Assembly (NCBI RefSeq): GCF_000007145.1
Contig: NC_003902.1
Location: 4,733,426-4,765,425, forward strand
Reading direction: 5' to 3'
Length of the DNA: 32,000 nt
Source: Xanthomonas campestris pv. campestris str. ATCC 33913
GTDB lineage: Bacteria > Pseudomonadota > Gammaproteobacteria > Xanthomonadales > Xanthomonadaceae
In this document: positions 9,818 to 15,099 of the stretch, in pieces
Numbering within the stretch: the stretch's first letter is position 1
How the letters are laid out: every line of letters begins with the position of its first letter
Made by a program: the position numbers and the translations under genes
The notes under the pieces: model-generated
Databases searched by the model: none
What the model saw: the letters and a program-made list of their open reading frames with translations, nothing else
Told to the model about the DNA's origin: nothing

Positions 9818-10635
9818 GCCGCATCCCGCTGAGCCGCGACGACACCGCCATCCTGGTGCCGGCCTTGAACGAGTCGCTGCGCATCCGCGAAGTGGTCAAC
9901 GACGCGCTGACCTATTGCTCGCAGGTGATCGTGATCGACGACGGCTCCGATGACGGCACCGCCGATTGCATCGCCGATTTGCCGGTCACCCTGATCCGCC
10001 ACCCGCAGCGCATGGGCAAGGGCGCCGCACTGCGTAGCGGCTTTGCCGAAGCCCAGCGGCAAGGCATGCGCGCGGTGATGACCATGGACGGCGACGGCCA
10101 GCACAGGGCCGCCGATTTCCCGCGCCTGCTGGCTGCGGCGAACCGCCACCCGGGCGCGGTGATCGTGGGCGCGCGCATGCGCAAGCGGGCCACCCAGCCC
10201 ACCATCCGCCGCATCGGCAACGACTTCGGCGACTGGGGCATCGCCTGGGCCTGCGGCTTCCGGCTGGTCGACAGCCAAAGCGGCCAGCGCCTGTATCCGG
10301 CCTCGGTGTTCACCCTGCCCAACGTGCCCGGCGAAGGCTTCGTGTTCGAAGCACAACTGCTGATCTCCGCCGCGCGCCAGGCCGGTGCGCGCGTGGTCGC
10401 GGTGCCGATCGAAACCCGGTACGCGGGCACCTCGCCCGGCACCTTCCGCAAGAGCCATTTCCGGCTGGTTCGCGATCTGTGGAACATCACCTCGCACGTG
10501 GTCAAGCAGGTGTGGGCTTACGGCCACATCTGGCGCGAATACCGCCGCGTGCGCGCACACCCGGTGCTGATTGACGACCCGGACGGCGAATTTGCTACTG
10601 TGCCCGCGGTCACCAAGAGCAATCCATCCACATGA
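9814..10635 (+). CDS. Family 2 glycosyltransferase
   Basis: 273-aa ORF with an ATGA overlap with the upstream gene. GT2 hallmarks are present: AILVPALNES, VIVIDDGSDDGT and TMDGDGQH (DxD-type). Confidence 0.85.
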   Translation: MSRIPLSRDDTAILVPALNESLRIREVVNDALTYCSQVIVIDDGSDDGTADCIADLPVTLIRHPQRMGKGAALRSGFAEAQRQGMRAVMTMDGDGQHRAADFPRLLAAANRHPGAVIVGARMRKRATQPTIRRIGNDFGDWGIAWACGFRLVDSQSGQRLYPASVFTLPNVPGEGFVFEAQLLISAARQAGARVVAVPIETRYAGTSPGTFRKSHFRLVRDLWNITSHVVKQVWAYGHIWREYRRVRAHPVLIDDPDGEFATVPAVTKSNPST

Positions 10636-12257
10636 GTGCACAACGCGCAGATGTCGTGATCACCGGCGGTGGCCTGGCCGGCCTGAGCCTGGCGCTGCAG
10701 TTGCGCCAACGCGATCCGGCACTGGCCATCACCGTGCTGGAACGCCGCGCACACCCGGTGCGCGAGGCGGCCTTCAAGGTCGGCGAATCGACCGTGGAGA
10801 TTGGCGCGCATTACTTCGCCGATGTGCTCGGCCTGCGCGAGCATCTGGAAGCCGAGCAGATCCGCAAGTTCGGTTTCCGCTTCTTCTTCTCCGACAAGCG
10901 CGACGACATCGACCGCTGCACCGAACTGGGTGTCAGCAAGATCCTGCCGACGCCGTCATGGCAGATCGACCGTGGCCGCTTCGAGAACTTCCTCGGCGAA
11001 CGCGCCCGCGCGCAAAGCATCGCGTTTTTGGATAGCTGCAGCGTCAAGGGCGTGGACCTGAGCGACGACGATGCCAGCGACCACAGCGTGCGCTACGAAC
11101 GCGGCGGCGAAGCCGGCACGCTCAACGCACGCTGGGTGGTGGATGCCAGCGGCCGCGCAGGATTACTCAAGCGTAAGTTGGGCCTGGCGCAGGACAACGC
11201 GCACGACGCCAACGCGGTGTGGTGGCGGGTGGAAGGACTGATAGACCCCAATGCCTGGTCGCAGGACAGCAGCTGGCTGCAGCGCTGCACGCCGCCGGAC
11301 CGCTGGCGTTCGACCAATCACATGTGCGGGCCGGGTTACTGGTTCTGGCTGATTCCGCTGTCGTCCGGTGCGCATTCGCTGGGCATCGTCTGCGATGCGG
11401 CGATGCATCCGCTGGAAACAATGAACACCCATGACAAGGCGATGGCCTGGCTGCGCACGCATCAGCCGCAGGTTGCCGCCACCCTGGACCAGACCGATTA
11501 CCGGCTGCAGGACTTCCTGTTCCTGCGCAACTTCTCCTACGGCTGCAAGCAGGTGTTTTCCACCCAGCGCTGGGCGCTCACCGGCGAGGCGGGTGTGTTC
11601 CTGGACCCGTTCTATTCGCCTGGCAGCGACTTCATCGCCATCTCCAACACCTACATCTGCGAACTGATCGGCCGCGACCGCGCCGGCCGCTCGCTCAGTC
11701 CCTACGTGGAGCTTTACGAGCAGCTGTACTTCTCGTTCTACGAAAACACCTTGAGCCTGTATCAGGACCAGTACGCCTTGTTCGGCGATGCCCAGGTGAT
11801 GCCGGTCAAGGTGATCTGGGACTACACCTATTACTGGTCGTTGCTGGCGCCGCTGTTCTGCAGCGGGCGCATCGCCGACCTGGGCCTGCTGGCGCGCATG
11901 AAGGCGGACTTCTTCCATGCGCGCGACATGAATCTGGCCATGCAGCGCGTGCTGCATGACTGGGGCCAGCACAACACCGCGCTGGGCACGGTTACCGGTG
12001 ACGGCCGCCTGCTCGATCAATACCTGATCGGCTGGTTCAATGAACTCAACGGCGCACTGCACGACACCCTGGACGACGAGGCATTTGCTGCGCGCATCCA
12101 CGCCAACATCGCGCGCATGGCGGTGCTGGCACGCGAGATCCTGGAACAGGCTCGCCAACGCCACCCCGCCCTGCCCGACCACGGCCTGGCCGCACTCACC
12201 GCCAACGCCGTCGGCGACCCGATCCTCACCGCCGCGTGGTATGCCGACGCGGCGTGA
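10632..12257 (+). CDS. Flavin-dependent halogenase (paralog 1)
   Basis: 541-aa ORF with an ATGA overlap with the GT2 gene. It has the N-terminal FAD fold VVITGGGLAGLSLAL. Both halogenase signatures are present: WxWxIP (GYWFWLIPL) and FxxPxxSxG (FLDPFYSPGSDF). Confidence 0.85.
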   Translation: MSAQRADVVITGGGLAGLSLALQLRQRDPALAITVLERRAHPVREAAFKVGESTVEIGAHYFADVLGLREHLEAEQIRKFGFRFFFSDKRDDIDRCTELGVSKILPTPSWQIDRGRFENFLGERARAQSIAFLDSCSVKGVDLSDDDASDHSVRYERGGEAGTLNARWVVDASGRAGLLKRKLGLAQDNAHDANAVWWRVEGLIDPNAWSQDSSWLQRCTPPDRWRSTNHMCGPGYWFWLIPLSSGAHSLGIVCDAAMHPLETMNTHDKAMAWLRTHQPQVAATLDQTDYRLQDFLFLRNFSYGCKQVFSTQRWALTGEAGVFLDPFYSPGSDFIAISNTYICELIGRDRAGRSLSPYVELYEQLYFSFYENTLSLYQDQYALFGDAQVMPVKVIWDYTYYWSLLAPLFCSGRIADLGLLARMKADFFHARDMNLAMQRVLHDWGQHNTALGTVTGDGRLLDQYLIGWFNELNGALHDTLDDEAFAARIHANIARMAVLAREILEQARQRHPALPDHGLAALTANAVGDPILTAAWYADAA

Positions 12258-12260
12258 CAA

Positions 12261-12905
12261 CTACCCCTCTTTAAGTGACCGTTTTCGATAAAGAGAATTT
12301 ACGTCAGCTTTAAACTGAGCATAAGAGGGGAGTTGGCAAATGGGTCCTTCTGCATCTATAGCAGAAACTAACCTAGCGCGCATTTTACCGAACAAGTTTT
12401 TAAACTTCTTAAGCTTGATTCCCTGTAGTTCGCTGCATTCACATAATGCATCTAGCAGGAGCCTTTTACTATCGACGACGTTCTCCAAAGCTTTAATTGC
12501 AGGTACGCAACCGATCTCACCGTAGCTAGCTTTTCCTGCCACCCTACTAATCGCCGTCATATCCACCAATAGCCACGTTTCAAGCATTTTCACTGGCACA
12601 ACGGGAATCACGGCTTCCGGGTCGAAAATTCCGACGCAGGCATCCTGTATCTCCTGTCGCCTAGCTTTCAGACCCTTAGAATCAGCGTCTCGGTGCACAA
12701 ATATCACGTCCGCGGATGGATACAGATCGCGTACAGCTAGCAACTTTTCTTTTACTGAATGACCGACATGAAACGGCAACCTTGATGGGTCAAAAGGTGT
12801 TCCACTAACCTCTGAGAAACCAGCATTTACCAACAATGTCTCAATGTGGTCAACCAAATTTAAATCTGATGCGCCTTCGCCAGTCAGCACAAACCTGATC
12901 TTCAT
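12261..12905 (-). CDS. Small TOPRIM-like protein (DUF4276/RloB/DUF4435-type pattern), putative nuclease partner of the ATPase
   Basis: 214-aa ORF. Its ATG (12905) overlaps the ATPase stop (ATGA). The motif order is that of the TOPRIM fold: MKIRFVLTGEGASD (Glu10), VIFVHRDADS (Asp73-x-Asp75), PVKMLETWLLVD (Glu109). The family assignment was made by eye, not by HMM. Confidence 0.7.
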   Translation of the reverse strand: MKIRFVLTGEGASDLNLVDHIETLLVNAGFSEVSGTPFDPSRLPFHVGHSVKEKLLAVRDLYPSADVIFVHRDADSKGLKARRQEIQDACVGIFDPEAVIPVVPVKMLETWLLVDMTAISRVAGKASYGEIGCVPAIKALENVVDSKRLLLDALCECSELQGIKLKKFKNLFGKMRARLVSAIDAEGPICQLPSYAQFKADVNSLYRKRSLKEG

Positions 12906-14320
12906 ACGGTGGCTTCCAGATTTATCGCTACACCGGTCGTTTTGAGGTTAAGAGATATCTGCCTATCAGGCGGCAATTCAAGATAAGAAATTATGGAGGC
13001 GCGATCAATTCCATTACCTTCCTCATCAGAGAATCTCCAGCTTTCGCGCAAACATTTACATCTTATAGTTGTAGCCGGCATTCCATTGGGACCTTTGACC
13101 TTAACCACATCTGCAAATATCAAATCATTCGGCTCTTCCAAAGAGACCAGGACAGGCGAGTGTGTTGCTACTACGATCTGCCTCATAGAGTTTGATTCAG
13201 ACACCTCATCGTGAGGATCGACGGACAGTTCTTTCAACAATGCCAACATTGCTCCAACTCGTGCAGGATGAATCCCATTTTCGGGCTCCTCGAAGCACAA
13301 AACACCATTAAAATCAGGATCTTCCGCAATTATTGAGAGTGCTAAGAATCTCAAAGTTCCATCAGAAAGTGCGCGAGCAGGTAAAAACGCGCCGCTCCTT
13401 TCTTTGACCTCGACGGTTAAAAGCTGACGGACCTGATCTACATCTACTCGAATGTCAGAGGTGGGCACAATTTCGGATAGTCGACTTGCTACACGGGTGT
13501 AAACAGAGGGATCTTTCCTGTGTAGCTTGTAAAGTGCCGCCCCTAGGCGCCCGCCCCCTGAACTGACCGCACCTTCTTCGTGTATTTTATTAGAGCGTCG
13601 CATCGCGCTTGGCTCGAGCGACAGAAACCGCCAAGACTGCATCTCGCGCCTAGCCGCAAGAATTGTGGGCCAGACGCCGCTATTAGTGTTGGACACCACC
13701 GTCTTAGGCGCATTCCTCGCAGGGAACTTCTGCGGCTGCCCGCTACTTCCTCCATCCTGATGGAGATGGATCTCAACAATTCCATCACGATCCTGATGCG
13801 TGGAGATAAAACCTGCACCTTTTCGTTTGTTAATTACAATATTTTCCCTAAACTTTGCCGCACTCATAGGAAAGCGCAACCGATCTACAGCCTCTCCTTT
13901 ATTAATGTGAATCAAAGTTTCTTTAACTAGATGCAAGCCAAGAGAGCCAGACTCTCGCTCGCCATCATCTCTCGCTAGCTCGACCTCGTAACGCAAGAAA
14001 GTTGAAGTTGCTTTTGCACGACGTCCGAAATCATCAATAACGTCGACAGGGACAATCATTTCAACGGCAAGAGAAAGGCGCTCGGATCTAAATTCGCCAT
14101 TTGTCCAAAAAATATCAAGTGGATCAGTGGAATCAGACTCTCTAACTTCTAAAGCAGCCTCCACTATTGATTTATCTGCTAAAAGAGATAAAAACTTTAT
14201 TGAGTCAAATATATTTGACTTACCAACCCCATTGAGCCCCGCAACGCAGTTAAAAGGCCCGAAGTTTACTGAAAATCCCAGGAGGTTTTTAAAGCAATTT
14301 ACTTCAAGCCGCGTTAACAT
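12902..14320 (-). CDS. ABC/SMC-type ATPase (AAA_15/AAA_21-like, OLD/AriA/AbiLi/PtuA-class head)
   Basis: 472-aa ORF. Motifs: Walker A GLNGVGKS (res 28-35); signature-like ALSDGTLRFLAL (res 317-328); Walker B plus D-loop VLCFEEPENGIHP (res 340-352); H-loop VVATHSPV (res 383-390). An AGGAG lies 9 nt upstream of the ATG. Confidence 0.9.
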   Translation of the reverse strand: MLTRLEVNCFKNLLGFSVNFGPFNCVAGLNGVGKSNIFDSIKFLSLLADKSIVEAALEVRESDSTDPLDIFWTNGEFRSERLSLAVEMIVPVDVIDDFGRRAKATSTFLRYEVELARDDGERESGSLGLHLVKETLIHINKGEAVDRLRFPMSAAKFRENIVINKRKGAGFISTHQDRDGIVEIHLHQDGGSSGQPQKFPARNAPKTVVSNTNSGVWPTILAARREMQSWRFLSLEPSAMRRSNKIHEEGAVSSGGGRLGAALYKLHRKDPSVYTRVASRLSEIVPTSDIRVDVDQVRQLLTVEVKERSGAFLPARALSDGTLRFLALSIIAEDPDFNGVLCFEEPENGIHPARVGAMLALLKELSVDPHDEVSESNSMRQIVVATHSPVLVSLEEPNDLIFADVVKVKGPNGMPATTIRCKCLRESWRFSDEEGNGIDRASIISYLELPPDRQISLNLKTTGVAINLEATV

Positions 14321-14329
14321 TTAACAGCG

Positions 14330-14334
14330 CTCCT
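14330..14334 (-). promoter_or_regulatory. Shine-Dalgarno (AGGAG) of the islet ATPase gene
   Basis: The minus strand reads ...TATCATATTTAGGAGCGCTGTTAAATG, with AGGAG spaced 9 nt from the ATG at 14320. Confidence 0.6.
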
Positions 14335-14361
14335 AAATATGATAAGCATACCTGAGAAAAT

Positions 14362-15099
14362 TCAGCCCATGCCGCCGTTGATGCCAATCACCTGGCCGTT
14401 GATGTAACCAGCCACATCCGAGCACAGGAACGCCACCAGCGCGGCAACTTCGTCGGGTTTGCCAACGCGGCCAGCCGGCACCATCTGCTTGATCATCTCC
14501 GGCGCGAAGCTGTCGCCGACCATCTCGCTTTCGATCACGCCCGGTGCGACCACGTTGACGGCGATGCCGCGGCTGGCCATCTCGCGCGCGAGCGATTTAC
14601 TGGCGCCGTGCAGCGCGGCCTTGGCAGCGGCGTAATTGGTCTGGCCGCGATTGCCCAGCACCGCCGCCACCGACGACACGCTGACGATGCGGCCCCAGCG
14701 CGCGCGCGCCATCGGCAGCAGCAGCGGTTGGGTGACATTGAAGAAACCGTGCAGCGACACATCGATGACCCGATGCCACTGTTGCGCGTTCATGCCGGCC
14801 ATCGGCGCATCGTCGTGGATGCCGGCGTTGTTGACCACGATGTGGATCGGCCCGGCCTCCAGCAACGCCGCCAATGCATCCGCACTGGCCTGCGCATCGG
14901 CCACATCGAAGGCCACCGCTTCGGCACTGCCGCCCGCGGCCACGATGGACGCCACCACTTCTTCGGCACGGGCGAGATTGCGATTGGCATGCACAAGGAC
15001 GTGCCGGCCCTGCGCCGCTAGCTGACGGCAGATCGCACCGCCAAGATCGCCGCTACCGCCGGTGACCAGCGCACGGCGCTGTGGAACAGATGTGCTCAT
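14362..15099 (-). CDS. 3-oxoacyl-ACP reductase (FabG-like SDR ketoreductase)
   Basis: 245-aa ORF. It has the cofactor motif ALVTGGSGDLGGAI, NNAG, the catalytic region SSVAAVLGNRGQTNYAAAKAAL (S...YxxxK), and the C-terminus GQVIGINGGMG. A GAGG lies 6 nt upstream of the ATG. Confidence 0.9.
   Translation of the reverse strand: MSTSVPQRRALVTGGSGDLGGAICRQLAAQGRHVLVHANRNLARAEEVVASIVAAGGSAEAVAFDVADAQASADALAALLEAGPIHIVVNNAGIHDDAPMAGMNAQQWHRVIDVSLHGFFNVTQPLLLPMARARWGRIVSVSSVAAVLGNRGQTNYAAAKAALHGASKSLAREMASRGIAVNVVAPGVIESEMVGDSFAPEMIKQMVPAGRVGKPDEVAALVAFLCSDVAGYINGQVIGINGGMG

Follow-up and report, generated by a model that had tools for sequence, protein, structure and literature searches.

Pairings of an ATP-binding cassette (ABC) ATPase with a TOPRIM protein recur in OLD classes 1-4, Gabija, PARIS, AbiL and MADS3-4 (PMC11464382). 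PARIS is the best-understood mechanistic analogue of the gene pair described here; its AriA acts as a sensor that depends on ATP and binds the TOPRIM nuclease AriB, and an oligomer of the ATPase keeps the nuclease sequestered until it is released by a phage trigger (PMC11464382). DUF4276 has been described as a Toprim member, and Mad4 of the MADS system is a homologue (PMC12065111). A further pairing, HEC-01 (Hma-embedded candidate 01), owes its definition in 2024 to "guilt by embedding" in Hma loci (bioRxiv 10.1101/2024.01.29.577857; Payne et al.; PADLOC-DB v2); it comprises an ABC ATPase together with a TOPRIM protein, the latter (HEC-01B) having the BpOLD metal-binding site, and the shortlist of candidates required presence in >100 genomes (bioRxiv 10.1101/2024.01.29.577857). 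The 32,000-nucleotide stretch of Xanthomonas campestris pv. campestris ATCC 33913 analysed here (NC_003902.1, 4,733,426 to 4,765,425; "the window", to whose first letter all positions refer) contains at 12258-14361 an AT-rich block, or islet, that encodes an ABC ATPase and a small TOPRIM-like protein, and profile matches place this pair in the catalogued candidate anti-phage family HEC-01 rather than in a new kind of system.

The gene pair and its family

The pair was assigned to HEC-01 from profile matches to PADLOC models and from gene adjacency, and not by PADLOC's system-calling rules. The ATPase is matched over its residues 1-426 by the HEC-01A model PDLC04184 (positions 1-432 of 464; E 1.9e-94, 315 bits), the best of 11 HEC-01A models, the others scoring ≤111 bits, and the small protein is matched by the HEC-01B model PDLC04210 (E 1.2e-14, 52.6 bits), with seven further HEC-01B models weaker. 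On the minus strand the two genes lie next to each other in the same orientation, A upstream of B, as in the HEC-01 gene order. They are the only open reading frames (ORFs) in the block, and the stop codon of one and the start codon of the other share an ATGA, as an initial annotation of this DNA, made from the letters alone, had stated; the overlap implies translational coupling, and in 13 of the 13 other loci examined the pair has either an ATGA overlap or a gap of ≤18 nt. Each protein has a 100% identical counterpart in X. campestris pv. raphani, and both have hundreds to thousands of homologues.

Translation of the ATPase gene verifies the Walker A, signature, Walker B and H-loop motifs that had been read from the sequence (GLNGVGKS, LSDGT, VLCFEEPENGIHP and THSP), and an alignment of 48 homologues finds them invariant. 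The protein matches Pfam AAA_21 (2.1e-23) and AAA_15 (4.4e-15), and its AlphaFold2 model (predicted local distance difference test score, pLDDT, 87.4) has an ABC/SMC-head fold with a beta-rich insert, whose fold matches are SMC, cohesin and condensin heads together with Septu/retron PtuA proteins (E 1e-12 to 1e-10). A PDB sequence search with the ATPase gave nothing meaningful, and its PHROGs matches are all of unknown function.

The E...DxD...E pattern of TOPRIM-type nucleases that had been proposed for the small protein is present on translation as E10, D73 and D75, and these residues are invariant in 55 homologues that reach down to 29% identity, as are G11, H71-R72, A74, P104, E109, W111, E141 and K147. 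In the AlphaFold2 model (pLDDT 95.8, predicted template modelling score 0.90), DSSP assigns strands at 2-8, 32-38, 67-71 and 99-102, alternating with helices; their order within the sheet was not checked directly. The protein thus shows the features that define the TOPRIM superfamily, namely a four-strand alpha/beta core, a glutamate after strand 1 and a DxD after strand 3. Its top PDB fold match is 6nk8, the catalytic C-terminal region of the Burkholderia pseudomallei OLD protein (probability 1.00). DUF4276 is matched by 46 of the 55 homologues at E ≤0.01 (best 8.5e-8), several of which are named DUF4276 by NCBI or UniRef, and by its profile scores the Xanthomonas protein is a peripheral member, at the edge of that family. 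The small-protein family comprises 2,654 representative clusters at E ≤1e-3, almost all of them stand-alone proteins of ~210 aa. A PDB sequence search with its profile found nothing meaningful, PHROGs gave zero matches, and a viral structure library gave no match to the model under E 0.017 and no TOPRIM-specific match.

The GC content is 0.461 across the block, compared with 0.684 and 0.679 in the 5 kb to its left and right and 0.666 in the whole window. The initial annotation's picture of an AT-rich islet in GC-rich DNA is therefore right, and its figure of 38-45% slightly low, as 300-bp windows within the block range from 0.40 to 0.56. A GC bump of 0.54-0.56 at ~13350-13800 corresponds to ATPase residues ~175-320, up to the signature motif; the remaining islet lies at 0.40-0.48. 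The block fills the gap between two convergent pigment-cluster genes, and its edges are where they had been placed: the TGA stop codon of the halogenase-like gene ends at 12257 and is followed by a 3-nt gap (CAA) and the stop codon of the small gene at 12261-12263, and at the other end the ketoreductase (KR) stop codon (14362-14364) lies 41 nt upstream of the ATPase start codon, an ATG at 14320. The islet ends carry no convincing direct or inverted repeats, and no integrase-like or transposase-like ORF is among the islet ORFs; tRNA genes were not scanned. Table 1 collects the features of the block and its surroundings.

Table 1. Features of the islet and of the adjoining genes (window positions)
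Feature	Position	Strand	Basis or remark
HEC-01A-type ABC (SMC-head-like) ATPase, 472 aa	12902..14320	-	ORF and profile matches
Walker A / P-loop GLNGVGKS (K34)	14216..14239	-	G28, N30, G31, G33, K34, S35 invariant
ABC signature LSDG(T)	13358..13369	-	L318, S319, D320, G321 invariant
Walker B and D-loop VLCFEEPENGIHP	13265..13303	-	E344 to P352 invariant
H-loop THSP	13154..13165	-	T386, H387, S388, P389 invariant
ATGA stop/start overlap of ATPase and small genes	12902..12905	-	sequence
HEC-01B-type partner, 214 aa	12261..12905	-	TOPRIM-like residues 1 to ~125 and all-helical C-terminal half
E10, predicted TOPRIM catalytic Glu, directly after strand 1	12876..12878	-	invariant; strand 2-8 in model
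HRDAD (H71-D75) with TOPRIM DxD, directly after strand 3	12681..12695	-	invariant; strand 67-71 in model
E109, acidic residue after strand 4, candidate second-metal ligand	12579..12581	-	invariant; putative ligand role
E141...K147 in helical C-terminal half, possible catalytic or substrate-binding role	12465..12485	-	invariant; putative role
fabG3-ATPase spacer, 41 nt	14321..14361	-	AGGAG Shine-Dalgarno 9 nt before ATG; -10-like element
fabG3/xanH ketoreductase (XCC4003), xanthomonadin cluster	14362..15099	-	directly upstream of module, same strand
FAD-dependent halogenase-like gene, convergent with module	10632..12257	+	FAD_binding_3 / Trp_halogenase in syntenic loci; orthologues in 80 loci

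Insertion site, distribution and age

Among 80 loci of Xanthomonas and other Lysobacteraceae with halogenase orthologues, only that of X. axonopodis DSM 3585 has the islet; in the others homology to the window ends exactly at 12257 and restarts at 14362, with a gap of 24 bp to 4.2 kb between. Because such "empty" sites, which the initial annotation had proposed to look for, exist in related genomes, the block is an insertion; it is neither common to all relatives nor host-like in composition. Protein-based look-ups place the pair at exactly the fabG3|halogenase junction also in X. fragariae, X. axonopodis pv. vasculorum and X. floridensis, and X. cannabis has the pair as well (its genomic position there was not checked), which makes five further Xanthomonas lineages with the pair. 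The ATPase is widespread in X. campestris, with a single sequence variant on 301 contigs of pv. campestris and raphani. The islet-bearing species are scattered on the flank-gene tree, each with islet-less sisters, and searches of the gaps in islet-less Xanthomonas find no decayed remnants (tblastn E ≤1, blastn E ≤0.1). X. axonopodis DSM 3585 has a C-terminally truncated small partner (182 aa; locus L008 7727-8275) and X. cannabis only a 130-aa fragment of it (protein P0069), the ATPase gene being kept in both; this may be decay in progress in some lineages.

The junction accommodates other cargo, and the type of occupant disagrees with the flank-gene tree. Some genomes have an empty halogenase|fabG3 junction (24-325 bp). 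Others have a ~0.5-kb spacer of GC ~0.52 encoding a conserved signal-peptide protein of ~156-163 aa (L001 7620-8111; L010 7640-8110; also L005 and L007), whose DNA shows 93.7% identity between X. arboricola pv. juglandis and X. pisi, other X. arboricola strains having a different spacer. X. vasicola and X. maliensis have tannase/feruloyl-esterase inserts (gaps L009 7621-10220 and L015 7621-9697) that share 93.6% identity over 1.9 kb, which suggests exchange between species at the slot, since the two species lie far apart on the flank tree. In other genera, many Luteimonas and Lysobacter have a Na+/H+ exchanger at the junction, and locus L058 has a second halogenase paralogue plus the exchanger. 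Repeat-rich "type B" spacers (gaps L002, L003, L004, L006, L011, L014 and L044) are built of internally repeated, partly inverted units of ~110-140 bp with overlapping blastn matches on both strands, and may be repetitive extragenic palindromic (REP)- or miniature inverted-repeat transposable element (MITE)-like elements. We infer from these occupants that the junction is a multi-allelic, recombining cargo slot whose contents are swapped through the conserved flanks. A defence hotspot was considered and rejected, the other occupants being a tannase, a Na+/H+ exchanger, a small secreted protein and a repeat-rich spacer.

Although foreign, the islet is old: its copies are at least as old as the species splits and not recent arrivals. 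Among the Xanthomonas copies the ATPase gene has a GC content of 0.46-0.47 and the small gene of 0.41-0.47, against 0.63-0.67 for the flanking genes, and the corresponding values at third codon positions (GC3) are 0.40-0.42, 0.35-0.44 and 0.72-0.86. Between species, the ATPase is 93-95% identical in protein and 78-81% in nucleotide sequence, the small partner 73-82% and 70-75%, and the flanks 89-94% and 84-88%. Synonymous saturation, controlled for codon usage, is 0.85 for the ATPase gene and 0.93 for the small gene, and 0.65-0.69 for the flanks. A naive reading of synonymous divergence, in which the islet is far older than its flanks, is rejected, for the high flank GC3 lowers the saturation ceiling of the flanking genes; the islet is at least as old as they are, by a factor of perhaps two in synonymous turnover rather than by orders of magnitude. 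With nonsynonymous divergence (dN) of 0.034-0.052, the ATPase is under strong purifying selection. We note that GC3 of the islet genes is 0.35-0.44 in all four Xanthomonas copies compared (the window, L081, L083 and L084) despite 85-93% saturation, with no shift toward the host value of ~0.8. GC would also stay low under AT-biased mutation if the selection or biased gene conversion behind the high GC of core genes were missing, so that recent transfer is not needed to account for it. Low GC alone is thus a poor clock of acquisition, for an islet at least as old as the species splits is still at 46% GC.

Outside Xanthomonas, nine contexts were found in which an ATPase homologue of 52-77% identity is followed by a 197-226-aa partner; the hosts are Pseudomonas (three places), Bordetella, Paraburkholderia, Ralstonia, Castellaniella, Paucibacter and Halomonas, and all nine have the pair only. 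Five cassettes that were measured have GC contents of 0.45-0.54 against flanks of 0.57-0.67. A lone insertion into an unrelated operon is typical of the clade to which the Xanthomonas pair belongs. Five of the nine contexts adjoin type I restriction-modification (R-M), toxin-antitoxin (TA), Bro-N, or insertion sequence (IS) or resolvase genes: the Ralstonia cassette comes directly after a type I R-M operon, the Castellaniella cassette is near HipBA and Gp49/HTH TA pairs, a Pseudomonas cassette near PIN/Phd and Bro-N genes, the Bordetella cassette near an IS and the Paraburkholderia cassette near a resolvase gene. Two Pseudomonas contexts have a Bro-N gene immediately beside the cassette, one on its downstream and one on its upstream side (L088 12264-12770; L096 9384-9833), which hints at a recurrent association. 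The phage collection searched holds one remote match (34.7%), the viral contigs one remote IMG/VR match (27%), and the plasmid collection one 591-kb Burkholderia replicon and three remote matches; a phage- or plasmid-borne clade was rejected on this near-absence.

The cluster that surrounds the islet is the xanthomonadin (aryl-polyene-type) pig cluster. Syntenic loci contain genes for an acyltransferase, ApeI-like, LolA_3, MMPL and ApeP-like proteins, a KR, the halogenase, a glycosyltransferase and two ketosynthases; fabG3 orthologues in the Xanthomonas loci are 88-92% identical, and their counterparts in syntenic loci match Pfam adh_short/KR. The KR gene is fabG3/xanH, XCC4003, and its neighbours are XCC4002 and XCC4004, the latter a dehydratase gene (PMC6859482). 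Since XCC4002 and XCC4004 flank fabG3 and XCC4004 is the dehydratase, the ATPase gene is, by position, apparently XCC4002. The XCC4002 transcript has been quantified by RT-qPCR in X. campestris pv. campestris, where deletion of fabG3 left it unchanged (PMC6859482). A scan between fabG3 and the ATPase gene found no consensus sigma-70 promoter or terminator on the minus strand; a conserved -10-like hexamer at 14339-14344 (minus strand) that the scan did not detect reads TATCAT, TATAAT, GCTAAT or CGTGAT in the aligned 40-42-nt spacers of four Xanthomonas species. The module is probably transcribed by read-through from the pigment operon, from a weak promoter of its own, or both.

Proposed function and rival explanations

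The reading that we favour, and hold to be reasonably probable, is that the block is a self-contained HEC-01-type module, a "split OLD-like" combination of an ABC ATPase with a separate TOPRIM nuclease, having the history given above and a mechanism of the following kind. The ATPase and the small partner probably form a complex, since their genes are coupled through the ATGA overlap and are always found together. The ATPase, on the pattern of AriA (PARIS) and PtuA (Septu), would dimerise or oligomerise on ATP and serve as sensor and scaffold. The 214-aa partner, given its TOPRIM fold and its invariant residues, is probably a metal-dependent nuclease, and to judge from PARIS, Septu, Gabija and OLD the ATPase would keep it inactive in the uninfected cell. 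Release or activation of the nuclease would follow a phage cue, for instance a phage protein or an altered nucleotide pool, and the infection would then be aborted by cleavage of DNA or tRNA. The initial annotation had likewise proposed a horizontally acquired, split-OLD-like defence module; the foreign composition, the empty sites and the HEC-01 models bear this out, but the acquisition was ancient, not recent, and defence by the Xanthomonas copy is putative. It had also supposed that the family might have been flagged only computationally or not at all; the family was published as HEC-01 in 2024 and has been assayed twice, with conflicting outcomes.

Several observations weigh against this reading. 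The HEC-01 representative tested by its discoverers gave no protection to E. coli MG1655 dRM against the BASEL collection and classic coliphages (bioRxiv 10.1101/2024.01.29.577857). According to a 2026 study, E. coli B was protected by a cold-seep representative against one or more of T7, T5 and T4 (PMC12881386), but that account is sparse in detail and deals with a representative that may or may not closely resemble the Xanthomonas pair, which, judged by sequence, may lie in a different HEC-01 subclade from the representatives assayed; other surveys still treat HEC-01 as unvalidated. The small protein scores 19.3 bits (E 1.4e-3) against Pfam DUF4276 (PF14103), under the gathering cutoff of 30.2, and its match to 6nk8 is modest (template modelling score 0.40-0.42, E 2.3e-3). 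The survey of homologue neighbourhoods that had been suggested as a check for defence islands did find the R-M, TA, Bro-N and IS or resolvase neighbours listed above, but the remaining four of the nine contexts are purely housekeeping and phage, plasmid and viral-contig collections all but lack the cassette, so guilt by association is not strong. Complex formation, the substrate of the putative nuclease and its trigger are all argued from analogous systems.

Some of the same points would suit a selfish, addiction-like or otherwise non-defensive cassette, one kept by costly loss in the manner of a TA module or by hitch-hiking in the slot, with no anti-phage benefit. Such a cassette need not have protected in the original HEC-01 assay (bioRxiv 10.1101/2024.01.29.577857), could sit in housekeeping contexts (four of the nine) or beside TA modules (three contexts), and could persist for long at one locus with its low GC retained. 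We nevertheless consider it unlikely: one HEC-01 representative did protect against a T-phage (PMC12881386), the ATPase is under very strong purifying selection and widespread in X. campestris, the small gene is truncated in two lineages that keep the ATPase gene, and strong addiction in particular is hard to square with repeated loss of the pair, without visible trace, in many Xanthomonas. Quite unlikely, in our estimation, is a history of trans-species polymorphism, in which the pair is an alternative slot occupant kept since the species arose, its AT-richness actively maintained (for example in the service of xenogeneic silencing or low-level expression) and its expression coupled to the xanthomonadin operon. 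If this were true, the pair would represent an immunity or a non-defence nuclease function tied to the leaf-surface lifestyle (photoprotection, epiphytic life), and not a roaming defence gene.

Strong purifying selection on the ATPase, which argues for an autonomous function, also bears on the idea that the pair is an accessory orphaned from a larger system linked to methylation or restriction (Hma, Mad3-Mad4 of MADS, or type I R-M) and, its partners being absent, is inactive or differently employed. HEC-01 was discovered inside Hma loci (bioRxiv 10.1101/2024.01.29.577857), Mad4 is a DUF4276 homologue (PMC12065111) and the Ralstonia cassette adjoins an R-M operon; the ATPase also matches NCBIfam MAD3 at E 8.8e-42, but its 143.7 bits are far under the 420-bit equivalog cutoff and no model labelled mad4 matches the small protein at E ≤1. 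As no methylase or helicase partner adjoins the pair in eight of the nine non-Xanthomonas contexts or in any Xanthomonas locus, we find the idea highly doubtful. A housekeeping or pigment function, whether as a RecF/RecN/SbcC-like repair pair or as an accessory of xanthomonadin synthesis or export co-transcribed with fabG3, appears extremely improbable. The pair does lie on the same strand as fabG3, 41 nt downstream and without a terminator between, and is widespread in X. campestris, but most xanthomonadin-producing Xanthomonas lack it, as do all other Lysobacteraceae loci examined, the same cassette turns up in unrelated settings in Pseudomonas, Bordetella, Ralstonia, Halomonas and others, its composition is foreign and the junction holds unrelated cargo elsewhere. 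As to repair, the weak N-terminal SMC_N match of the ATPase reaches 32.4 bits against a cutoff of 40, and RecF (TIGR00611, 26.8 against 172) and SMC (14 against 729) are likewise below theirs; the initial annotation had named a non-nuclease fold or a housekeeping ATPase of the RecF/RecN type as what would speak against it, and the small protein instead has a TOPRIM-like model, with RecF, RecN and SMC far below thresholds.

The Xanthomonas copy offers a native test system for a family that is common but mechanistically blank and for which heterologous assays conflict. XCC4002 has apparently been measured at the transcript level, so this is a conserved and apparently expressed native copy, and X. 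campestris is a genetically tractable plant pathogen with its own phages, in which the pair is bounded by well-studied genes. The practical relevance is to phage biocontrol of black rot.

Comparison with known systems

The nearest solved defence structures to the ATPase model are those of Septu/retron PtuA (8eea, 8sux, 9n69 and others; E ~1e-12), and Septu is likewise a two-gene system of an ATPase and a nuclease. Its effector is, however, an HNH protein (PtuB), whereas that of the Xanthomonas pair is TOPRIM-like, with no HNH match, and the NCBIfam PtuA model reaches 13.1 bits on the ATPase against a cutoff of 500, so the resemblance is at the level of fold only. The OLD nucleases and GajA of Gabija (classes 1-2) resemble the pair in joining an ABC ATPase with a TOPRIM domain, and 6nk8, the best PDB match of the small protein, is one of them; there the domains are fused in one polypeptide, whereas here they are encoded by separate genes. 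The Old and GajA PADLOC models match only short segments of the ATPase (E 1e-8 to 1e-10), neither islet protein has a Pfam Toprim_Old match, and no GajB helicase is present.

PARIS shares with the Xanthomonas pair the split, two-gene ATPase/TOPRIM design. Its nuclease AriB is a DUF4435 TOPRIM protein, whereas the Xanthomonas partner lies on the DUF4276 branch and has no AriB or DUF4435 match. AriA models match the ATPase only at residues 283-393 or 1-101, the C-terminal ABC core at E 1e-24, and AriA is absent from the top 50 fold matches of the ATPase model. Mad3 and Mad4 of MADS are similar in being an AAA_15/21 ABC ATPase and a DUF4276-type TOPRIM protein; unlike them, the Xanthomonas pair has no adjoining mad genes or methyltransferase, its neighbours being fabG3 and the halogenase gene.

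From HEC-01 itself the Xanthomonas copy differs in its setting, for it is in a pigment cluster, outside any Hma or other defence locus. In make-up the two agree: an ABC ATPase is followed by a small TOPRIM-like protein, and the OLD-like metal-site residues are kept in the small protein of Xanthomonas.

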